Positions 9,260-22,058 of a stretch of DNA of 22,234 bases are shown here, piece by piece. A program made the position numbers and the translations under genes. Each line of letters begins with the position of its first letter. Positions within the stretch are counted from its first letter, which is position 1. The notes beneath the pieces were generated by a model. The model worked only from the letters and a program-made list of their open reading frames with translations, searched no databases and was not told the origin of the DNA. The DNA is from Malassezia furfur (Eukaryota), in NCBI GenBank assembly GCA_052055015.1, contig JBQJIT010000004.1; one strand, written 5' to 3'.

Positions 9260-12200
9260 ATGATCGATGCCCAGGTGCCGCCCACGGGCCCTGCGGCTGG
9301 CGGTGCGGAGGACGAGCTGGCTACTCAGCTGTGCCACCGCTACTACCAAGGGATCTTTTATACCCAAATCCAGGAGAGTGTGTTGGTGGTGCTCAACCCC
9401 TTCCACACGCCGGTGGATGTGAATGGTGAAGAGACGCTGCGAGAGTATTGCCGCGCGTACCGTGACATGCGGTACACGACGAGCGACCGCAGCGTTCCGC
9501 CACATATCTTCCGTACGGCATCCGATGCCTATTTCTACATGCAGCGCACCGGCCAGGATCAAGCGCTCTTTTTCCTTGGCGAAACGGCGAGCGGAAAAAG
9601 CGAGGCACGTCGCCTTGCTGTGCGCGCAATTGTGGCACTCTCTGTGGCACTTCCCGGGAAGCGTGGCGCGCGACTTGGAGCGCAGTTACCAGCGGCGCAG
9701 TTCGCCATGGAGTGTTTTGGGAACGCCGAGTCGGACGAGAACCGTAATGCGTCCGGCATGGCGCTTTATTCCGAGCTGCAGTTTAGCAAAAACGGGCGAC
9801 TGGTCGGTATGAAGATGCTCAACTACTACCTTGAGCGCAGCCGGGTGTCGCCGCTACGCAGCATGGAGCGCACCTTCCACGTATTTTACCTGTTGATTGC
9901 CGGTGCCTCTCCCGAGGACCGCAACCGCTGGCGGTTTGACGATGTCCCGAGTTTCCGCCTGCTCACTGCGGGCGGCCGCGGTGCGCCGGTCAGCAGTGCT
10001 GAACAACTGGCTGGGCGGTACGCGCGCCTGCTGCATGCGCTCGACGTCGTCGGCATGCCGCCGGTGCAGCGCGCGGCAATGCTGGATGTGCTCGCGGCAA
10101 TTCTGCACCTGTCCAATTTGGACTTCGTGCGCGACAGCGGTCCCCACACGGCGGCACGCGTCACGTCTGAAGAACCACTGTATATTGCTGCGTCGTTGTT
10201 GGGCGTCGGTGCGAGTGCACTGGCGAATGCGGTGACGCACCTGACCAAAGTCGTGCGCGGCGACCTTTGCACCATTATGCTCGATGCCAATGGCGCTGCC
10301 GCGAACCGGGATGCGCTTATGCGCATGCTCTACTCGCTGTTGTTTGCGTGGCTGAATGAATTCCTTAACCAACACCTGTCCAGCGACCAGTTCCACGCGT
10401 ACATCGGTCTGCTCGATACGCCAGGGTGGACAAACCGTGTGCACAACTCGCTCGATCAGTTCGCGGTTAACTTTATGGCGGACACCGTGCATCGGCACAT
10501 GGCCGCGACGCTGCTGGAGCGCCGCACGGATGAGATGGACCGCGAAGGACTGTCGCACATGGCGCCGCTGCCCGTCGCGGCGGACGAGGCCGAGAGGCTT
10601 CGTCTGCTGACGCACTTCCCCGGCGGCCTGGTACACATCATGGACGACCAGACGCGCCGGCGTCCGCGCAAGACGGACGAGACGATGGTCACAGCGATGC
10701 AGAGGCGTTGGGTGAACCACGCGGCACTGCACATCGACACGTCCGACTCGCTAGGCCCCCCTTCGTTTGTCGTGACCCACTTCCACAGTGAGGTGTCGTA
10801 CGACCCGCACGCGTGGTTGGAGCGCAACGACGAGTCGTTTGCTCTGGAGCACGTATCGTTGCTGCGCGGCGCTGACCGGTCCCCCGACGGCACGACAGGG
10901 ATGGGCTCGTCGAACGCGTTTATCCGCAACCTGTTCAAGACTGCGGCGGTCTGGACGCAGCTGCCGATGCCCGACGGCGCCAATTTGCAGGGTACGCAGG
11001 CGGCGCTGCGTCCCCTGCGCGCCCCGTCAACAATCCGTGCACGGCGCAACGGCACGCTGCGGGGCGCCGCGTCGGGTCGCGCGCGCGACACCGACGCCGA
11101 CGAAGACACGTACGGGAGTGACCTGCAGCGTACGCCGGCCGTCGCGAAGCATGAGATGCCGTGTGTGCTGGGCGAGCTACAGAATGCGCTCGGCACGCTC
11201 ATGGAGGTCGTCGACGACGCTAAGCCGTGGTTCGTGCTGTGTGTGCGCCCCAACACGAACCAGCTCGCGAACCAGTGTGAGGCGCGCATGGTGCGCCGAC
11301 AGACGCACGCGCTGGGCCTTGCGCGCCTGCGTCACGGCCACGCGCGCGACTACAGCGTGACGCTGACCTATACCGAGTTCTGCGACCGGTACGGCACGTT
11401 GCCCGGTCTCGACTCGCTGCAGTTGCTGGGTGCGCCGAGTGCCGAGGCCAAGATGCGCGTGAGCGATGCATGTGCACTGATGAACTGGACCGATGCCTAC
11501 GTCGCAATGGGCATTCACAAGGTCTTTTTGTCGCATGACGTATTCCGCGAGCTAGAGGACAGTTTGCGCCAGCGCGACCCCGAAGAGGTGCAGTATACGC
11601 TGCGAAAGGCGGCCGCGGAAGACGACACGCCCGTGCAGGACGAGCCGTACTCGCCGTACATCGATGCGCCGCACGCGCCCGAGGACCTGCCGAACCCGTT
11701 CGAGGTGGTGGACGCGCCCCCGGCCGCCGCCTTTACGTATGCAGGCGAAGTCGACGCTGAAGAAACGCACAGCCTGTTGCAGCGCGATGCTGCCTCAGAA
11801 AAGGGGTGGGCGGACGAGTCCGTGTTTATGGACGACGCGCTGGATGCCGGCCCGGGCGACACTGGGACGGCCGATGGGCCGCGGGTCACCGAGAAGCTGC
11901 GCGTCTCGGCACTGCGGCGGCACTGGGTGGCATTAACGTGGTTGTTCACGTGGTGGATCCCGTCGCTGGTGCTGAAGCGGTTCAAGCGGTTCAAGCGGTC
12001 GGACGTGCGCATGGCGTGGCGCGAGAAGCTGCTGATCAACATGATCATCTGGTTCATCTGCCTGTGCTCCATCTTTGTAATTGTGTTTTTGGGCAACGTG
12101 GTGTGCCCGACGCAGCACCTATACAGCACCACGGAGCTGTCTGGCTACAAAGGCAAGCATGCATACACGGCGATCCGTGGCGAAGTGTTCAACCTGAACG

Positions 12201-15076
12201 GCATCATATCGGGCCACCGCGCAGCGATCCCCGTCATCTCGAGCAAGACGCTGCAGCAGTATGCGGGCACCGACGCGACCAACATCTTCCCTGTCCAGGT
12301 CAACGCGCTGTGCAACGGCGTCACGGGCAGCATCTCGCCCTGGGTCACGCTCGACAACAACAACAACACGGACGCCAACGCCCAGTACCACGATTTCCGT
12401 GCGTACCGTGGCGTGGATGTACGCCCCGACTGGTATTACGAGCAGATGTGGTACATGCGCAGCCGCTTCCGTGTGGGGATGATTGGGTACACGCCCAAGG
12501 AGATCGACAACGCCAAGCAGGACGGCCGGACGCTCGCGGTGTACAACAAGGAGATTTACGAGATCACCGACTACATCTCCCAGGGCAACCAGGGCGGTGT
12601 GCTGGTGCCTGACGGCATGGCGCCCCCACCCAACCTGGACCGCACGATTTTGGCCCCAGAGATTGTGAGTCTCATGGCACAGAACCCCGGGGCAGATATT
12701 ACGCAGCAGCTGGACCGCCTGCCGCTCGATCCAGCAGTGCTGGGCCGGCAGCGTGTGTGTTTGCGCAACCTGTACTTTATCGGGAGGCTCGACGAGCGCA
12801 ATTCGGCTCGGTGCACCTTTTCCAAGTACATCCTGCTCGCGCTCTCGGTCATTATGGTTGCTACCATCGGTTTCAAGTTCTTTGCGGCGCTACAGTTTGG
12901 CGGCGCGCGACCACCAGAGGAGCAAGACAAGTTTGTGATCTGCCAGGTGCCGTGTTACACCGAGGACACCGACTCGATCCGTAAGACGGTCAACTCGCTG
13001 GCCAAGCTCAAGTACGACGACCGGCGCAAGTTGCTCATCCTCGTCTGTGACGGCAATATTGTGGGCGCGGGCAACGATGCGCCCACGCCACAGCTCGTTC
13101 TTGATTTGCTCGGCGCTGACACAAGCCAAGAGGCGGAGCCGTACAGTTTTGTGTCGCTTGGCGAGGGCAGCAAGCAGCACAACATGGCGCGTGTCTACAG
13201 CGGACTGTACGAGCACGCCGGACATATGGTACCATACCTGGTGATCGCCAAGTGCGGACGCCCCACTGAGACCACCAAGCCGGGCAACCGCGGGAAGCGC
13301 GACTCGCAGCTGGTGCTGATGCGCTTTTTGAACAAGGTGCACTTCGGTCTACCCATGTGCCCGCTCGAGCTTGAGATGTACCACCAGATCAAGAACGTCA
13401 TCGGGGTCAACCCGTCGTTCTACGAGTACATCCTGCAGGTGGACGCCGACACCGAAGTCGAGCCCACGGCGCTCACGCGCATGGTCGCAAGCTTTGTGCA
13501 CGACAAGAAGATCATTGGGTTGTGTGGCGAGACGGCCATATCCAATGAGCAACAGAGTCTCACGACGATGCTACAGGTGTACGAGTACTACATCTCGCAC
13601 CACATGGTCAAGGCGTTTGAAAGCCTGTTTGGCTCGATCACCTGTTTGCCGGGGTGCTTCTCCATGTTCCGCATCCGCACGCCGGACACACAGCGCCCGC
13701 TATTCATCGCCAATAGCGTGCTGGAGGACTACTCGGAGAACCGTGTCGATACCCTGCACCTCAAGAACCTGCTGTACCTCGGTGAGGACCGCTACCTTAC
13801 TACGCTTGTGCTCAAGCACTTCCCGGACTACAAGACGGTATTTGTGCGCCATGCACGCTGCACCACCACCGTGCCGGACAGCTGGCGCGTGCTTCTCTCG
13901 CAGCGGCGCCGTTGGATCAATTCGACCGTGCACAACCTTGTCGAGCTGCTGCGCACTCCGCAGCTGTGTGGTTTCTGCTTGTTCTCAATGCGCTTCGTCG
14001 TGATGCTAGACCTGCTCTCGACCATCATTGCACCGGTAACGATTGGCTACCTCGTTTACCTCGTCGTGGTGGTCTCGGTGGATGGCGGTACCATCCCGCT
14101 CACTTCCATCATGCTTCTCGCGGCGATCTACGGCCTGCAGGCGATCATCTTCCTGCTGCACCGCCGCTTTGATATGATCGGATGGATGGTGGTGTATATT
14201 CTCGCACTGCCTGTCTGGTCTCTCATCCTCCCGCTCTATTCCTTCTGGCACATGGACGACTTCTCGTGGGGCAATACGCGTATCGTCACCGGGGAGAACG
14301 GTGAAAAACTGGTGGTGCACAACGAAGGTACCTTCGACCCCGCTGAGATCCCGCACATGACCTGGGAAGAGTACGAAAACGGCCTCTGGGAGAACCGCAC
14401 GGGCGTCTCCGACCCCGAGGCGTTTGCGCGCCACGTGCCAATGAGCAAGTCGACGCGTGCGCTACTCCAGCGCAACCCGAGCCTGTACGGGTACGCGTCG
14501 CACCCCGTGCCAGAGTACACGGAGCCGGAGGCGATGTACGCCAGCTACTACACCGACGAATCCGACCCGCGTCTGTCCAAGCCTCCACTCGACGAAGCTC
14601 CAGACGCGTCGTGGGGTGCGCACGAATCCGTCTCGCTACTCCCTCGCGGCGGTGGCTACGACATGGCACCGTCTGCAAAGCGGCCCTTCAGCCTCGCAAC
14701 CTACAACCCCTCGTCCGTGGGACACGGCACCGAGTACAAGGACGACGCCTATGGTCTCGATCCGCCACATGCCGAGCCGCTCATCGACACGCATCCGGCG
14801 CCGATGCAGCCGAGCGCGTACACCTATGAGTCGGCTGCACCGGCGCCTGCGTCCGTGCCTGCAACCCCTCCGACATTCGCCGAGGCGCGGCGAAACCGAC
14901 TGCCGCGTGATGAAGTGATCCGCTATGACATCCGGACGATCATTGCGCACAGCGATCTGACGACCGTCACCAAGCGACAGGTGCGCAATCAGCTCCAAGA
15001 ACGCTATGGGTGCCCGATTGACGAAAAGAAGGCCTACATCAATGCGCAGATCGAGGCGGCGCTGCGCGACGTGTGA
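9260..15076 (+). CDS. Chitin synthase with N-terminal myosin motor-like domain (class V, Mcs1/CsmA type), 1938 aa
   Basis: Single long ORF. Myosin-like head (PPHIF, P-loop GETASGKS, NYYLERSRV, ERTFHVFY), cytochrome b5-like region (AIRGEVFNL), GT2 motifs QVDADT, GEDRYLT and QRRRW (13901-13915), WHMDDFSWGNTR, and a C-terminal DEK_C-like domain. Confidence 0.96.
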   Translation: MIDAQVPPTGPAAGGAEDELATQLCHRYYQGIFYTQIQESVLVVLNPFHTPVDVNGEETLREYCRAYRDMRYTTSDRSVPPHIFRTASDAYFYMQRTGQDQALFFLGETASGKSEARRLAVRAIVALSVALPGKRGARLGAQLPAAQFAMECFGNAESDENRNASGMALYSELQFSKNGRLVGMKMLNYYLERSRVSPLRSMERTFHVFYLLIAGASPEDRNRWRFDDVPSFRLLTAGGRGAPVSSAEQLAGRYARLLHALDVVGMPPVQRAAMLDVLAAILHLSNLDFVRDSGPHTAARVTSEEPLYIAASLLGVGASALANAVTHLTKVVRGDLCTIMLDANGAAANRDALMRMLYSLLFAWLNEFLNQHLSSDQFHAYIGLLDTPGWTNRVHNSLDQFAVNFMADTVHRHMAATLLERRTDEMDREGLSHMAPLPVAADEAERLRLLTHFPGGLVHIMDDQTRRRPRKTDETMVTAMQRRWVNHAALHIDTSDSLGPPSFVVTHFHSEVSYDPHAWLERNDESFALEHVSLLRGADRSPDGTTGMGSSNAFIRNLFKTAAVWTQLPMPDGANLQGTQAALRPLRAPSTIRARRNGTLRGAASGRARDTDADEDTYGSDLQRTPAVAKHEMPCVLGELQNALGTLMEVVDDAKPWFVLCVRPNTNQLANQCEARMVRRQTHALGLARLRHGHARDYSVTLTYTEFCDRYGTLPGLDSLQLLGAPSAEAKMRVSDACALMNWTDAYVAMGIHKVFLSHDVFRELEDSLRQRDPEEVQYTLRKAAAEDDTPVQDEPYSPYIDAPHAPEDLPNPFEVVDAPPAAAFTYAGEVDAEETHSLLQRDAASEKGWADESVFMDDALDAGPGDTGTADGPRVTEKLRVSALRRHWVALTWLFTWWIPSLVLKRFKRFKRSDVRMAWREKLLINMIIWFICLCSIFVIVFLGNVVCPTQHLYSTTELSGYKGKHAYTAIRGEVFNLNGIISGHRAAIPVISSKTLQQYAGTDATNIFPVQVNALCNGVTGSISPWVTLDNNNNTDANAQYHDFRAYRGVDVRPDWYYEQMWYMRSRFRVGMIGYTPKEIDNAKQDGRTLAVYNKEIYEITDYISQGNQGGVLVPDGMAPPPNLDRTILAPEIVSLMAQNPGADITQQLDRLPLDPAVLGRQRVCLRNLYFIGRLDERNSARCTFSKYILLALSVIMVATIGFKFFAALQFGGARPPEEQDKFVICQVPCYTEDTDSIRKTVNSLAKLKYDDRRKLLILVCDGNIVGAGNDAPTPQLVLDLLGADTSQEAEPYSFVSLGEGSKQHNMARVYSGLYEHAGHMVPYLVIAKCGRPTETTKPGNRGKRDSQLVLMRFLNKVHFGLPMCPLELEMYHQIKNVIGVNPSFYEYILQVDADTEVEPTALTRMVASFVHDKKIIGLCGETAISNEQQSLTTMLQVYEYYISHHMVKAFESLFGSITCLPGCFSMFRIRTPDTQRPLFIANSVLEDYSENRVDTLHLKNLLYLGEDRYLTTLVLKHFPDYKTVFVRHARCTTTVPDSWRVLLSQRRRWINSTVHNLVELLRTPQLCGFCLFSMRFVVMLDLLSTIIAPVTIGYLVYLVVVVSVDGGTIPLTSIMLLAAIYGLQAIIFLLHRRFDMIGWMVVYILALPVWSLILPLYSFWHMDDFSWGNTRIVTGENGEKLVVHNEGTFDPAEIPHMTWEEYENGLWENRTGVSDPEAFARHVPMSKSTRALLQRNPSLYGYASHPVPEYTEPEAMYASYYTDESDPRLSKPPLDEAPDASWGAHESVSLLPRGGGYDMAPSAKRPFSLATYNPSSVGHGTEYKDDAYGLDPPHAEPLIDTHPAPMQPSAYTYESAAPAPASVPATPPTFAEARRNRLPRDEVIRYDIRTIIAHSDLTTVTKRQVRNQLQERYGCPIDEKKAYINAQIEAALRDV

Positions 15077-15123: not shown

Positions 15124-16247
15124 TTAGCGCATGATTTCTTCGTAGATCAATCGTTTCAGCTCTTCACGCGACAGCGGCGCCTTGGCCGAGTCGGCATCAA
15201 AGAAGCTCGGGTCCAGCGGCTCGGCGTCCGGCTCGTCATTGGGGTCGTGATAGGGCTCAAGGTAGGGATGGGCTAGCGCGTCTTCCACAGTGATGCGCTT
15301 CCGAGGCGAGAACTCGAGGAGCCGCTCGAGCAGGTCAATGGCAAGCGGGTCGGCATTCGGGAAGAGTGTCGCAAAGTTTTTGCGCTTGCAGAAGGGGAGG
15401 GAGCGGATGTAGTCCCGCGACCGAGCCGAGTTGATCGCATAAAAGTCGTCCAGCGACGGAGTGCCCAGCACTTCAAGGATCAGTGACAGCTGGTGGTGGT
15501 AATCGCGTCCGGGGAAGAGCGGGCGGCCCGAGAGCATTTCGGCGAAGATGCAGCCAACGGACCAGAGGTCGATGGCCTTGGTATATTCCTTGAAGGTAAG
15601 CATGATTTCCGGCGCCCGGTACCACCGTGTCGCAACATATTCCGTCAGGAACGCCTTGCCGTCCGGCTCCGGCTGGTCCGCACTGCGTGCAAGACCAAAG
15701 TCGCAAATCTTCAGGTCGCAATTGGCGTTCAAGAGCAGGTTAGTCGGCTTCAAGTCGCGGTGCAAAACGCCCGCCGAGTGCAGCGCCTTGAGGCCACGCA
15801 GGATTTGATAGACAAAGTATTGATAATGGTCATTGGATAGATTCTGCGTCCGGATCACGCGATGCATGTCCGTCTCCATAAGCTCCTGGATGAGGTGCAC
15901 TTCGGTAAACGACTCGAGCGACGCGGGCCGAACGATGTCGAGAATGGAGATGATGTTCTCGTGGTGAAAGTGGCGCAGCAGCCGGATTTCCCGCAGTGTG
16001 CGCAGGCAGAACATCTGATGGTCAAACGGCGAGATGCGCTTGACAGCGACGCGCGTGGACGTGGGCAGGTGTACGGCCGAACTGGGTGAGCAATAGACCA
16101 ACGTACTACACCACGCCGTAGGCGCCCTCGCCCACGGTCTTGATCAGGCGGGCGGTATGTTCCGCCCAGCTGTGGTCCTGCAGTACCATCTGTGGTCGTC
16201 GGTGCGACGGAGGTCGCGCCCGCACGCGTAGGGTCGACGTTATTCAT
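15124..16247 (-). CDS. MAP kinase of the Fus3/Kss1 (Kpp2/Ubc3-like, TEY) class; exon 1 carries an apparent 4-bp frameshift
   Basis: Exon 2 is 16081-15124; 25-nt intron 16106-16082. Motifs [60 protein letters not shown] 16247 is out of frame because GCGG is duplicated at 16148-16155; ATG 16189 is in frame (346 aa). Confidence 0.9.
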
Positions 16248-16522
16248 TAGCTTGTGTCAGGCCTCGACCGAGGGACGTCGCCAAGGCTGGGTCCGCACGC
16301 CGAGAGCACCAATTTCGGTCACGTGTCACATCATGTTGGGGAAGCCCGACGACGCTCCCGATTTGGCGCTGTGGGACTTGGCAAGCGAGGGGAAGGGGAC
16401 TGTCGCGTGGCAATTTCCCCGCCGACCGCGTGCGCGCATTTGAGATCGACTTTGCCTTAAACGAGACACGCTGTATCGCTCAGGCAGTTGGTTCGATCTT
16501 AGCTTCGCTGCTCCCTGGAAGC

Positions 16523-19090
16523 ATGCCACAGGCCTATGCGCTATCGCAGCAGGGGGTAGGAGCTAATGCTCATCCTCGTCGCCCTCCATCAACCTGGTCA
16601 GCTGCATCCAGGGACAATCATGATGGGGCCGACGATCGTGTGAAGTACTCCCACTCAGGGGTCAACATCCTCGACATTCTCACGCGCGTGAGCCAGCGCA
16701 GCTCTCCGCAGGTGAGTTTGGGGCCGGTGGATATGACTTGCGCGATGAGCGTTGCACGTGTTTCTGTCAACAACGCATCCCGCATGCTACAGATCGAATA
16801 CGGGGATGTTAGCGACGAGTTTTTGCGGCTCGTGGGACAGACGCGCGATCGTGTCGTAGGCCAAGAGCCTGGAAATGTACTCCCATGTGCCAACTATGAG
16901 GTGCAGCGCGTGCGCCGAATGTACGCGGCAGCAGCGAATGGTGTAGAACAGCAGGCGGTGATGGAGCTGACAGGTCCCAAACAGCAAACATTCTATGTGC
17001 TCATGACGTTGATTCCGCTGCGATACACGGGTCGCCGAGATCATCGCGCAATTTCTCGCGGCATTGAGTGGATTGTGGGCTTTCAGGCGGAAGTGACGCC
17101 GGGTGACCTCCCACACATGCTAAGTCTTATCCACAACAGCCAAGGACCGTTGGACCCGTTGGAGCCGCAGAAACTCGCCAAGGAGTCGCCAAGCAAGCCC
17201 CCGCCTCCCGAGACCTCGCATGAATGGCATGACCTCGTGGCCGAGACAGGTGATGCGGGGACCGTGTACTTCGTTACCTGGCATGACGTCCTACAATATG
17301 TCTCAGCGTCCGTCGAAACCCAACTTGGCTACCGCGCCGACGAGCTAATCGGCAAGCCCGTGGAGGAGCTGTGTCATCCAAACGACATGGTTGCGCTCTT
17401 CCGTGAGCTCAAAGGGATCAAGAACAAGACGGGCAAAATGCCCAATGCCCGTGCGCGATTTCCAGTCAAGCCTGTGCGCCTCGACGAGAGCGTATCACAG
17501 CACATGATCCTCGCTGAGGTCAATGGCCTGCTGCGTTTCAAACACAAGACTGAGGGGCTTATCTGGATGGAATCATCGGCGCGCCTTGTGCAGCAGCAGG
17601 GCGCTCCTGGACGACGGGCGCGCTCGGTAATTGCTGTTTCGGGATGGCGTCACAAAAATCCGATGGCGTCTCAATCGGATCTACTCGACGGAAAGAGAAT
17701 GGCCAATTCACCCAAGGTCGTGCAGGCCCAGGTGATGCAGCTTGCACAGGCGCAACAAGCACAAGCCAAGCAGGCACAGATACAACAGACACAACAGACA
17801 CAGCTGCAGCAGGCACAGCTACGACAGGCACAGGTTCAGCAGGCACAGGCTCAGCAGGCACAGGCCCAGCAGGCACAAACCCAGCAGGCACAGGCCCAGC
17901 AGGCACAGGCTCAGCACGCCGCCGACCAGGCCAAGCACGCTGCCATGCAAGCACAGCAGGCTGCCCAGCAAGCGCGACGTGTACAGGAGGTGCAGCACGC
18001 ACAGCACGCACAGCACGCACAGCAGATGCAGCGTGTCGAACAAGAGCGCGCTACGCACTCGCGCTCGGCGTCGATGGAGAACAAGGCCCACCCCAATCTG
18101 CCCTTGTGGCTGACACTTTCGGCCATGGGTCTGATTCTGCAGTGCTTTGAGCAGACCGACGCCGACACGGTGCAGCCTGTGGACGAGCCCGAGATCCCTC
18201 TGCGGATTGGTTTTGTGCTTCCGAATGTGATGCAGCAAGAGGTCATGCTCCAGATCCAGAAGGCATTTATGCATGGCGCAAAGCAGCCCGTGAGCATCGC
18301 TACATGGATCTCCAATACGCCCGTGATCACCACCTGGATTCCGCTCTCGCCGGAGCTTACGAGTCCGTCGCTGGAGCAGATGGGTGTGCAGATGTTGGTG
18401 CGTTTGGACATTTGCCGCAACGGCTTTGATCGTGCGCCGCATCGGCTCTTTTCCCCGGACGAGGCGTGGTTGACGGTGCCTTCGGGGTTGCGGCAAAACG
18501 GCCCAGAGGAGGCGACGTTGGAGCCGACCGCCCCGACGCTTGCGTCCTTCGATATGGGTCCCTCGCCCTCGCAGGTATCTGACCGGTCGTCGTCCGTGGT
18601 CAGTGGCCAAAACTTTTTCCCATGGGGCTCCAGCGATGAGGCCTGGTCGCAATGGTCACACTTTCGCGGACCCAGCGCTGAAGAACCAGATCCGCTGACA
18701 CCTGGCTCAATTTCATCGTTACTGTGGAACATCAGTTCAACCAGCGACACAGGGATGGACACCGACGGTGGACAGAGGACGCCGACGTCGGTACCGATGC
18801 AAGGCGCTAGAACGCGCGACGCCGACTTGTCGCAGTATACATCGCACTTTTCGGCGCCGCTTGCGGCGGGGATGAACACGGCCGCGCCGCTCGTCGGCAT
18901 GCCTCTCAATGAGTTTTTAACCCAAAGCGGGCTAACGCCGATCCCGTCGGACAGCCTGCCGGGCGCAGAGAAGAATTGGTCCGCGGAGATGTTCCCAGTG
19001 TCGATGTCGTCCAATGCGCCGTCGCACTACATCTCGGACACCTCCCAACATCAAGCGCAGTCGCATGACTTCGGTTTTTGGCCCTACTAA
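16523..19090 (+). CDS. White collar-1-like protein with degenerate LOV domain, PAS domain and Gln/Ala-rich repeat, about 855 aa
   Basis: WC-1-like pre-LOV cap ([33 protein letters not shown]), LOV-like core ending WIVGFQ, and PAS segment [39 protein letters not shown]. No GATA finger, as expected for basidiomycete WC-1. First ATG at 16523. Confidence 0.75.
17740..18030 (+). repeat. Coding minisatellite: 15-nt CAGCAGGCACAGGCY units (QQAQA), then 9-nt CAGCACGCA units (QHA)
   Basis: Directly visible tandem units at about 17806-17915, and QHA x3 at about 17993-18019. Confidence 0.85.
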
Positions 19091-21505: not shown

Positions 21506-22058
21506 TTACTTGCCCTGAGGAGCCTCCTTGAAGGCGAGCGCGTGCTCCTCGTTCATGGCCGCAACGATGGTGACCATGAGGTCCTTGCCCTCCTCGAAGG
21601 CCTCGTTGATCTGCTCGCCGAGCTCACCCTCGGGCAGCTTGACGTCGTCCTTCGACGTGCCGTCGTTCGACATCAGGTTCAGGTAACCGTCGTCGATGTT
21701 GATCAGCTGGTACTCGCGACGGGTCACGTTGGGCACCTCCATGTTGTGCGTCGAGGGCGAAATATCCTCGTACTTACGGTTGGTGAAGATGTCGGTGGCG
21801 ACCAGGTGCACCTTGGCGTGACCGTGCTTGCCCGTCTTCGAGGTCGACATGTCGATGATCTGGGGTGAGCGAGTGTGGGCAAACGCACCTTGCAGGGGCG
21901 GCCCTTGATCACCACATGGCCGTTCTTGCGGAGCGCCGAGCACTGCTGGGGGTAGGTCAGCGAGGCACCGGCGTGGGCGGTCTCGAAGTTGACGTTCTGG
22001 GTCTCGTCGTCAGACTGAAGGGTTAGCCGCACTGCGTTTCAGCAGGCCTACGCACCAT
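21506..22058 (-). CDS. TIF51: Eukaryotic translation factor eIF5A, 160 aa, 3 exons (first coding exon is only the ATG)
   Basis: Exons 22058-22056, 22014-21889, 21859-21506 (introns 41, 29 nt). Hypusine motif [39 protein letters not shown]. Confidence 0.96.

Follow-up and report, generated by a model that had tools for sequence, protein, structure and literature searches.

A likely light-blind descendant of the White Collar-1 photoreceptor in Malassezia yeasts

The WC-1-like gene and its surroundings

The DNA analysed here, a stretch of 22,234 nucleotides called the window below, carries on its plus strand a gene for a protein resembling White Collar-1 (WC-1), the main blue-light receptor of fungi, divergently transcribed from a neighbouring MAPK gene. 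Its reading frame is open across 16430..19090 (+), as an earlier, sequence-only reading of this DNA had maintained, and the first ATG, at 16523, yields a product of 855 amino acids. This product is colinear throughout with the M. furfur protein GLX27_000476 (885 aa; 84% identity over the searched region), and because the colinearity runs from end to end, a single exon is the likely gene model; the gene is that of a Malassezia species. The gene, its upstream region and the features of its product are as follows (window coordinates, strand, description and basis):

16190..16522, no strand: region between this gene and the MAPK gene transcribed away from it, putative shared promoter (ATGs at 16189 and 16523)
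16523..19090, plus: WC-1-like gene, single exon, 855 codons and stop (ORF and ATG; colinear with M. furfur, M. brasiliensis and other Malassezia proteins)
16634..16744, plus: N-terminal cap and hinge of the VVD/ENVOY/WC-1 type, residues 38-74 (33 protein letters not shown; phmmer alignment to ENVOY and VVD)
16745..17098, plus: LOV-like PAS core without flavin site, residues 75-192 (Pfam PAS_9, AlphaFold2, Foldseek, VIA)
16859..16864, plus: deletion junction G113/Q114, RNCRFL with the adduct Cys missing (HMMER, BLASTP, MAFFT)
16967..16969, plus: L149, column of the first flavin-binding Asn (NYRK); N in 66/66 WC-1-like rows, L/F/M/V in 10/10 Malassezia-type rows
16997..16999, plus: V159, column of the second flavin-binding Asn (FxNL); N in 65/66 WC-1-like rows, V/I/T/A in 10/10 Malassezia-type rows
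17084..17086, plus: Q188, the kept Gln of VGFQ (I-beta); Q in 65/66 WC-1-like rows and 7/10 Malassezia-type rows
17243..17656, plus: second PAS domain (PASB), residues 241-378 (Pfam PAS_3 and PAS; BLASTP alignment to WC-1 PASB)
17744..18032, plus: tandem repeats rich in CAG/GCA, imperfect, that code for a Q/A-rich linker (Tandem Repeats Finder)
18083..18472, plus: third, divergent PAS-fold domain (PASC-like), residues 521-650 (AlphaFold2 model and VIA)

The sequence-only reading had the gene share a divergent promoter of 275 nt with the MAPK gene. The two genes do share an intergenic region, but the length is approximate: the MAPK frame begins at the ATG at 16189 (first 27 protein letters not shown), the intergenic region measures 333 nt, and the ATG at 16247 from which the shorter figure came is out of the MAPK frame.

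A gene for an Mcs1-type chitin synthase lies two genes away from the WC-1-like gene in the window. The um gene numbers of Ustilago maydis, which we take to follow chromosome order, are the basis of an argument that wco1 and mcs1 are linked there as well. According to the accessible parts of the sources, mcs1 (um03204) is 24 gene numbers from wco1 (um03180) in that species (Brych et al., 2016, among others). Outside Malassezia, a first metagenome scan for micro-synteny found no loci, and a second recovered 80 WC-1 loci, whose long contigs (4-6.6 kb) are not close to Ustilaginomycotina (identity at most 51%). By tblastn with the window's neighbours as queries, an Mcs1-like synthase, the Sel1 protein or eIF5A was near WC-1 in 0 of these 80 loci, and a kinase 29% identical to the window neighbour in two (L036 and L037).

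Domain layout and the altered LOV position

A VVD/WC-1-type N-cap opens the protein, and three PAS-type domains come after it: one that is LOV-like, a second PAS domain, and a third that has the PAS fold but is divergent. No zinc finger follows, the C-x2-C-x17/18-C-x2-C pattern of GATA fingers being absent from the window protein. U. maydis Wco1 (um03180), Cryptococcus Bwc1 and Coprinopsis Dst1 are built in the same way, with an N-cap, a PAS domain at the LOV position, two further PAS domains and no finger; so is the Thecaphora frezii WC-1-type protein P0021, and the layout matches the one given for basidiomycete WC-1 in the available portion of Idnurm and Heitman (2005).

The N-cap, which is helical at residues 12-20 of the predicted model, has the cap/hinge motif LGPVD..C in common with Neurospora VVD and Trichoderma ENVOY, and together with the LOV domain it retrieves both of these from the PDB with phmmer (ENVOY 4wuj, E 3.3e-4; VVD, E 5e-4). 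Pfam PAS_9 recognizes the LOV-like part at 39.4 bits (E 7.8e-10), as against 85.5-99.8 bits for the intact Ustilaginomycotina WC-1 proteins. AlphaFold2 models the domain with confidence (pLDDT 90.8, pTM 0.87) from an alignment whose 66 intact LOV sequences favour the fold toward LOV. In this predicted model the PAS fold is closest to solved LOV domains, the best structural matches being ENVOY (Foldseek E 1.6e-9; VIA against 4wuj_A, Z 15.7) and VVD (VIA against 3rh8_B, Z 16.2, rmsd 2.5 Å over 137 residues, 25% identity). Unlike the window protein, these two are single-domain flavoproteins with GRNCRFLQ, and the model departs from both in that its Ealpha segment is cut to a helix of three residues.

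The next PAS domain, earlier described as intact, is recognized by Pfam PAS_3 with an E value of 2.8e-8. The Q/A-rich repeat stretch beyond it is confined to the window type and to M. furfur and M. brasiliensis. Unlike in Wco1, Bwc1 and Dst1, the third domain has diverged beyond HMMER recognition. AlphaFold2 models the region 18065-18502 with a pLDDT of 87, and VIA aligns the domain with ARNT PAS-B (Z 8.5, rmsd 2.5 Å over 87 residues), its top rows all being PAS domains; all Foldseek matches stay above E 0.001 (best E 5e-3 to 3e-2), and hhalign pairs this C-terminal domain of the Malassezia proteins with WC-1 PASC in register but weakly (E 0.0019, probability 14%). The VIA score and the uniformly PAS match list point to a PAS fold for this modelled domain. 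A protein atlas look-up returned generic PAS clusters only.

At the LOV position, HMMER, BLASTP and MAFFT open the same gap of six residues, G[RNCRFL]QAPG becoming GQEPG, and because the three aligners coincide, the motif is read as deleted rather than substituted. The sequence-only reading had located the site precisely, G113 of a stretch of ten residues (letters not shown) starting exactly at 16859, and was right that GRNCRFLQ is absent; the residue-by-residue replacement it described gives way to the deletion. The adduct Cys expected within GXNCRFLQ is missing, its column holding Cys in none of the ten Malassezia-type rows as against 65 of 66 other WC-1-like rows, and no NCRFLQ-like peptide was found in the other two frames or behind an intron in 16700-17100. 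A Cys slightly downstream, Cys122 of NVLPC, was considered as a substitute adduct residue and rejected, since only four of the ten aligned Malassezia-type sequences carry Cys there.

Both flavin-binding Asn are lost, as had been proposed, and the pairing of F.N with FYV was correct, but the first Asn had been matched to a Glu one column away from its true counterpart, L149. The terminal VGFQ, previously noted as kept, retains its Gln (Q188); the three Malassezia-type rows without it have L, H and H. Moreover, the Ealpha-Falpha loop is shorter by five residues in most Malassezia-type sequences. The window protein thus stands apart from Wco1, Bwc1 and Dst1 in lacking RNCRFL, in the replacement of both flavin Asn and in its shorter Ealpha-Falpha loop. 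The accessible part of Yee et al. (2015) names as LOV-conserved, in YtvA numbering, G59, N61, R63, F64, L65, Q66, N94, N104 and Q123; three of these nine are left, namely the equivalents of G59, Q66 (if the gap corresponds to RNCRFL) and Q123, while L149 and V159 occupy the places of N94 and N104. The protein resembles Cys-less LOV-like regulators such as halobacterial BAT-LOV in having a LOV-related PAS domain without the adduct Cys, but that class, as presented in the same portion of the paper, binds flavin and keeps at least nine other residues (Yee et al., 2015), and with three of nine the window protein falls outside it. Because RNCRFL is deleted and both Asn have become hydrophobic, we infer that this pseudo-LOV domain can neither hold flavin in the manner of LOV domains nor form a Cys adduct. 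The original claim of a LOV domain without photoactive Cys and flavin-binding residues is borne out insofar as there is no adduct Cys and most flavin contacts are gone.

Ancestry and constraint across the genus

Outside Malassezia, the best matches of the window protein are Ustilaginomycotina WC-1 proteins. In an exhaustive profile search the Malassezia-type sequences score above 260 bits and are followed, at 166-155 bits, by proteins of Tilletia and Thecaphora and by Coprinopsis Dst1; with P0021, BLASTP aligns 382 columns at 27% identity (E 9e-27). The WC-1 LOV motif is almost invariant in these other proteins, the Cys being kept in 125 of the 127 WC-1-like ones among the best 150 of the exhaustive search, and in all 76 among the matches listed in a search with an Ustilaginomycotina WC-1 profile.

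Maximum-likelihood trees of WC-1, which included neither um02052 (a second U. maydis protein discussed below) nor a non-WC-1 LOV outgroup, gather the Malassezia sequences in one clade (100/100) and join it to the other Ustilaginomycotina WC-1 proteins with modest support (UFBoot 61 / SH-aLRT 90). The Malassezia stem measures 2.5-2.6 substitutions/site versus about 0.3 for other class stems, a roughly 8-9-fold excess that invites tree artefacts, and an alternative topology that sets Malassezia apart from every zinc-finger-less basidiomycete WC-1 survives the test (delta lnL 5.5, AU p 0.062). The favoured placement is consistent, at its modest support, with orthology to Ustilaginomycotina WC-1. 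Hence, the descent from WC-1 proposed by the sequence-only reading finds agreement in the shared layout without zinc finger, the best outside matches and the tree position, while the phylogeny that was to bear on it comes out in two parts, with the protein beside Ustilaginomycotina WC-1 and the alternative topology still standing.

Loss of the LOV hallmarks is common to all Malassezia-type sequences found, which cover nine named species (M. furfur, M. brasiliensis, M. psittaci, M. yamatoensis, M. obtusa, M. japonica, M. cuniculi, M. sp. CBS 17886 and M. pachydermatis), and the frame is open over 715-885 codons in every Malassezia lineage found. No intact Malassezia paralogue appeared among the matches listed (at least 120, 56 of them organism-named) in a search that used a profile built from nine WC-1 proteins of Ustilaginomycotina and scored the 8000 candidates with most shared words. 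Mean pairwise identity within the genus is 59% for the N-cap, 46% for the LOV-like domain, 62% for PASB, the best conserved part of the protein, and 48% for the PASC-like domain, compared to 12-23% for the linkers; because of this difference the protein is taken to be under constraint, and the earlier idea that it has been retained now extends to the genus. More than 100 positions are invariant across seven aligned Malassezia-type sequences, and at the remodelled site P116 and V119 are new invariant residues. The M. pachydermatis-type sequence has shed its N-cap and a large part of the LOV-like core (8% and 25% identity).

A proposed light-independent role and its alternatives

We consider it fairly likely that the protein is a light-blind Malassezia descendant of basidiomycete WC-1, kept for a light-independent role as a co-regulator; to judge from its residues, it now probably works without light. 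Its ancestor would have been a White Collar-1 photoreceptor of the Wco1/Bwc1/Dst1 type. Along the stem of the genus, RNCRFL would have been deleted in frame, and with it the adduct Cys plus one Asn and one Arg; the two flavin-binding Asn that were left would have turned hydrophobic, and purifying selection would have acted on the PAS fold and N-cap, and above all on the two downstream PAS domains. The role retained would most likely be the light-independent half of WC-1 function, that is, PAS-mediated self-association and nuclear binding of a DNA-binding partner, making the protein a constitutive transcriptional co-regulator by analogy with the Wco1/Wco2 and Bwc1/Bwc2 pairs. A functional analogy is offered by Neurospora WC-1 without its LOV domain, which in 2002 work by He et al. 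is said still to support the dark functions of the White Collar Complex; that case is engineered, in an ascomycete, in a protein with its own zinc finger, whereas the Malassezia state is natural, genus-wide and finger-less. The reading we prefer is thus of a WC-1 blind to light that would persist as a PAS scaffold or co-regulator. According to the available part of Brych et al. (2016), Wco1 interacts with Wco2 and with itself in the yeast two-hybrid system and induces photolyases. A search for WC-2 among shorter proteins, with PASC and the zinc finger of Aspergillus LreA as query, gave at least 120 listed matches, all of them WC-1 C-terminal fragments by Pfam.

There is a small chance that the protein is no Wco1 orthologue, and that an older WC-1-like paralogue already without hallmarks, akin to U. 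maydis um02052, was kept while Wco1 was lost in Malassezia. As given in the accessible portion of Brych et al. (2016), and compared here by description only, um02052 is a second annotated wc-1 homolog without GKNCRFLQ, and so resembles the window protein in annotation, missing motif and subphylum; Zhao et al. (2018) also include it in a list of seven PAS proteins from U. maydis, and a stem of 2.6 substitutions/site with an AU p of 0.062 allows a deeper origin. Yet the 127 non-Malassezia WC-1-like proteins among the best 150, for which all representatives were read, are without exception of the Wco1 type, including the 125 with Cys, and because no other type occurs there outside Malassezia, any um02052-type representative would have to lie under 107 bits, where the Thecaphora Wco1-type protein reaches 163.5. 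The alignment to WC-1, extending over 340-380 residues, takes in the WC-1/VVD N-cap and a basidiomycete-type PASB; the U. maydis gene numbered near mcs1 is wco1, not um02052; and the text available from Brych et al. (2016) speaks of a um02052 'PAS domain' in the singular. Search ranking and gene-number linkage favour Wco1 as the closer relative. Cryptococcus Pas3 was also considered as a relative and was rejected, being described as a small one-PAS protein.

It is unlikely, though the fold itself is confidently predicted by AlphaFold2, that the domain is still a sensor, its remodelled pocket binding a lipid, an indole, another cofactor or flavin in a non-LOV manner under ligand or redox regulation. 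The identity of 46% within the LOV-like core, the invariance of P116 and V119 and the hydrophobic residues in both Asn columns of all ten Malassezia-type rows would suit such a pocket. Many PAS domains have no ligand, however, the I-beta Gln is missing in three of the ten rows, and the domain is eroded further in the M. pachydermatis type, so that the pseudo-LOV part may be expendable and not a working module. Signalling through flavin reduction is still possible in natural LOV-like proteins without the Cys, as the accessible part of Yee et al. (2015) reports, but these keep at least nine other conserved residues, and of the nine listed the window protein has three. A narrower proposal, which we think quite improbable, has the former chromophore pocket bind a hydrophobic metabolite, either a lipid or a tryptophan-derived indole, because the Ealpha wall of the flavin site is deleted and the polar Asn are now hydrophobic; such a ligand-sensing PAS transcription regulator would be a fungal counterpart of the ligand-activated bHLH-PAS receptors, made from a light sensor in a lipid-dependent skin yeast. 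It is highly improbable that the gene has lost its function and is simply decaying: the very long stem, the long terminal branches, the highly variable linkers and the loss of the N-cap in the M. pachydermatis type are what decay might leave, but frames open over 715-885 codons in all lineages found, domains far more alike than linkers (46-62% versus 12-23%) and over 100 invariant positions in seven aligned sequences argue against it.

If the protein is a light-blind WC-1, as we favour, its genus-wide lack of the photochemical core would constitute a natural experiment that parts the light-dependent from the light-independent roles of White Collar proteins. Motif-based surveys would count Malassezia as without WC-1. 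M. globosa was reportedly listed in a 2010 review as having no white collar genes, and no published account of a LOV-deleted Malassezia WC-1 was found in the literature searched. Loss of the LOV core would then fit a broader loss of blue-light and photoreactivation functions in Malassezia: because this core is lost and photolyases are absent in published tables, the evidence suggests that Malassezia skin yeasts have dismantled both blue-light sensing and photoreactivation. Four Malassezia genomes are recorded with zero (6-4) photolyases, zero CPD class I/II photolyases and zero CRY-DASH, and U. maydis, in the same table, with photolyase/cryptochrome counts of 1/1/0/2 (iScience 2026, Table S1a).

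Loss of the LOV flavin site from a conserved PAS protein

Malassezia belongs to the Ustilaginomycotina, class Malasseziomycetes (NCBI taxonomy), and the WC-1-like protein of the window has close counterparts in M. brasiliensis (87% identity over the searched residues) and in M. furfur GLX27_000476 (84%, likewise). Its gene and neighbours are as follows.

9260-15076, +: class V chitin synthase, Mcs1 type, 1938 aa (N-terminal myosin motor, cytochrome b5-like, Chitin_synth_2, DEK_C as tail), two genes from the WC-1-like gene
15124-16189, -: Fus3/Kss1-type MAPK (best PDB match yeast FUS3, E 2.7e-128)
16430-19090, +: WC-1-like open frame, first ATG 16523, 855 residues
19187-21388, +: Pro-rich Sel1-repeat protein with a CIIC terminus (CaaX-like end)
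21506-21943, -: eIF5A homologue (eIF-5a and IF5A-like_N domains)

The WC-1-like frame is intact, as the sequence-only reading had it, and is likely a single exon because an 885-aa M. furfur model is colinear with it from first to last residue. Pfam finds PAS_9 (39.4 bits, E 7.8e-10) and, for the next PAS domain, also correctly described as intact, PAS_3/PAS (E 2.8e-8 / 8.2e-7), this second domain aligning to WC-1 PASB. Among PDB sequences phmmer retrieves ENVOY (4wuj, E 3.3e-4) and VVD (E 5e-4), in alignments running from the N-terminal cap, a stretch of 32 residues, onward through the PAS core. Residues 38-200 were modelled confidently by AlphaFold2 (pLDDT 90.8, pTM 0.87), from an input alignment whose 66 intact LOV sequences bias it toward a LOV fold. 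The nearest structures to this model are again VVD and ENVOY (Foldseek E 1.6e-9; VIA Z 16.2, rmsd 2.5 A over 137 residues for 3rh8_B, VVD, and Z 15.7 for 4wuj_A, ENVOY, the remaining PAS domains scoring Z <= 13.5); Ealpha is predicted to be reduced to a helix of only three residues.

What has gone is the flavin site. The earlier reading was right that the canonical GRNCRFLQ is absent, but its column-by-column pairing with GQEPGNVL gives way to a clean in-frame deletion, since HMMER, MAFFT and BLASTP against P0021, a WC-1-type protein of Thecaphora frezii (27% identity, 382 columns, E 9e-27), place one and the same 6-residue gap at RNCRFL. Thus G-RNCRFL-QAPG of WC-1 becomes G-QEPG in the window protein and GQAP in M. 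furfur, with loss of the motif's Asn, adduct Cys and Arg; nor do the other frames of 16700-17100 encode an RNCRFL-type peptide. Residue counts confirm, throughout the window protein's own clade (Malassezia-type), the proposed absence of the photoactive Cys and of both flavin-binding Asn.

Residues at LOV positions in a 76-row alignment (66 WC-1-like and 10 Malassezia-type rows)
Adduct Cys: WC-1-like 65/66; Malassezia-type 0/10
First flavin Asn: WC-1-like 66/66; Malassezia-type 0/10 (L/F/M/V)
Second flavin Asn: WC-1-like 65/66; Malassezia-type 0/10 (V/I/T/A)
I-beta Gln: WC-1-like 65/66; Malassezia-type 7/10 (others L, H, H)

In addition, the post-motif loop is five residues shorter in most Malassezia-type rows, and its near-invariant Arg is replaced by Glu/Asp/Lys or a gap. 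The LOV-conserved residues listed by Yee et al. (2015) are YtvA G59, N61, C62, R63, F64, L65, Q66, N94, N104 and Q123, and the natural Cys-less class described there needs at least 9 non-Cys conserved residues, whereas the window protein has three, the equivalents of G59, Q66 and Q123. At the sequence level, then, the canonical flavin site and adduct Cys are shown to be gone while the PAS domains are conserved. The Cys of NVLPC, present in only 4/10 Malassezia-type rows, is ruled out as a conserved replacement.

Rarity of the loss

A profile built from seven Malassezia-type proteins was run across 1.84 billion representatives; the best 150 matches comprise 12 Malassezia-type, 127 WC-1-like and 11 long proteins matched via repeated PAS stretches only. 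The adduct Cys is found in 125 of these 127 (motif NCRFLQ in 122, NCLFLQ or SCRFLQ in three) and in 76/76 further WC-1 proteins from a Ustilaginomycotina WC-1 profile search, and in none of the Malassezia-type sequences, whose clusters are named M. furfur, M. brasiliensis, M. psittaci, M. yamatoensis, M. obtusa, M. japonica, M. cuniculi, M. sp. CBS 17886 and M. pachydermatis or are unnamed. Nor did an intact Malassezia paralogue appear among the 120 matches listed (56 with organism names) for a nine-protein Ustilaginomycotina WC-1 profile, in a search whose scoring was limited to the 8000 candidates with the most words in common.

Two of the 127 WC-1-like proteins lack the Cys: P0096, with NARFMQ, and P0144, where part of the motif is missing. 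P0096, a non-Malassezia protein of 605 aa, has Ala for the Cys and VGFC, that is, Cys for the I-beta Gln; since both flavin Asn are kept, this is possibly a naturally occurring WC-1 without the Cys that might bind flavin all the same. P0144 (939 aa) reads GRNWHGAIND in place of CRFLQ and the subsequent loop, which reflects either a genuine deletion within the protein or an intron called wrongly.

Relationship to Wco1 and um02052

Wco1 of Ustilago maydis (um03180) is described as finger-less, with GKNCRFLQ present, as pairing with Wco2 (um02664) and with itself in yeast two-hybrid assays, and as inducing photolyases (Brych et al., 2016). The window protein likewise yielded no match to a GATA-finger pattern, and its layout is that outlined for basidiomycete WC-1 by Idnurm and Heitman (2005) and shared by P0021 (PAS domains, finger-less). 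Its C-terminal conserved block (18065-18502) adopts a PAS fold in an AlphaFold2 model (pLDDT 87); VIA ranks ARNT PAS-B (Z 8.5) among top rows that are PAS domains throughout, Foldseek E values are no better than 5e-3, and the match to a WC-1 PASC (third PAS domain) profile is weak (E 0.0019, probability 14%).

A live rival is that the Malassezia protein is orthologous not to Wco1 but to um02052, a second annotated wc-1 homolog of U. maydis said to be without the LOV hallmark (Brych et al., 2016), and one of the seven PAS proteins (UMAG_02052) of Zhao et al. (2018), whose Pas3 is a small, single-PAS protein. Against it, only Wco1-type proteins rank directly below the Malassezia clade in the best 150 profile matches, and cap and PASB are alignable across 340-380 residues. 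Moreover, wco1 is 24 gene numbers from mcs1 (um03204), the myosin-motor chitin synthase of U. maydis, if numbers run in chromosome order, as we assume, and an Mcs1-type synthase lies two genes off in the window. The window neighbours occurred at 0/80 metagenomic WC-1 loci, which included no long contig from a close relative.

Outside Malassezia, the highest-ranking matches come from three Ustilaginomycotina genera, Tilletia, Thecaphora and Ceraceosorus; Agaricomycetes come next, Coprinopsis Dst1 among them (taxonomy confirmed for two of the match genera). Trees were built from 71 of 138 usable rows (quick run) and from 49 rows picked for having names (quick and careful runs), excluding the fragments P0004, P0012, P0015, P0016, P0018, P0078 and P0122 and the 11 multi-PAS proteins. 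Both row sets recover Agaricomycotina and Ustilaginomycetes and join Malassezia, a 100/100 clade, to the other Ustilaginomycotina, a placement that fits orthology to Wco1. The joining branch has modest support (UFBoot 61 / SH-aLRT 90), the Malassezia stem measures 2.5-2.6 substitutions per site versus ~0.3 for other class stems, and a position outside all finger-less basidiomycete WC-1 is not rejected by the AU test (delta lnL 5.5, p 0.062). P0063, labelled as the fern Adiantum nelumboides, falls with Ustilaginomycotina WC-1 in tree and searches, which suggests fungal DNA in that assembly.

Constraint within the genus and possible role

Mean pairwise identity among seven full-length Malassezia-type proteins is 59% in the N-terminal cap, 46% in the LOV-like core, 62% in PASB, 48% in the PASC-like domain and 12-23% in linkers and tails. 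Over 100 positions do not vary at all, P116 and V119 of the remodelled site among them, and all lineages keep open frames of 715-885 codons. The M. pachydermatis type has lost the cap and first strand (8%, 25% and 41% identity to the window type in cap, LOV-like core and PASB), and so, of the three domains, the pseudo-LOV part (the LOV-like core without flavin site) is, judging from these alignments, the least secure.

The protein would no longer be a blue-light sensor, and probably persists as a module for PAS-mediated interaction, associating with itself and with a DNA-binding partner to serve as a constitutive co-regulator, by analogy with Wco1-Wco2, with Bwc1/Bwc2 and with Neurospora WC-1 without LOV, which reportedly retains its dark function. 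For Bwc1/Bwc2 a light-independent role in virulence is cited by Brych et al. (2016). According to Table S1a of a 2026 iScience paper, (6-4) photolyase, CPD of classes I and II and CRY-DASH number, in this order, 1/1/0/2 in U. maydis and 0 each in M. vespertilionis, M. pachydermatis, M. globosa and M. sympodialis; on these counts the Wco1-induced photolyase output known in U. maydis is therefore also absent from these species. For two of the four species the same paper gives a 'plant CRY' that is bacterial-like. A full-text literature search found no paper on Malassezia WC-1; the gene is taken here as a probable WC-1 orthologue whose pseudo-LOV state is fixed across the genus.

Several smaller features accompany the locus. 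Imperfect CAG/GCA-rich tandem repeats (17744-18032, periods 9-30) code for a linker of ~100 residues rich in Q/A, the source of spurious TFIIA/PAT1 Pfam matches; this linker is confined to the window type, M. furfur and M. brasiliensis, among which its length varies. Near 18840 (residue 776/855) the window reads TSHFSAP where the otherwise identical database protein P0002 has TSHSSAP, so that the two differ in one residue. The first MAPK exon (ATG 16189) ends in GAYGVV directly before an in-frame TAG, so that the sequence requires a very short intron at around 16105-16135; the eIF5A homologue probably has its N-terminal exon upstream of 21506-21943 (-). The Sel1-repeat protein is possibly a chitin synthase activator of Skt5/Chs4 type, and its gene is fused to the WC-1-like gene in models from M. 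yamatoensis (P0007, 1418 aa) and M. japonica (P0290, 1436 aa), so that the order of the two is conserved and these two models are probably merged genes.
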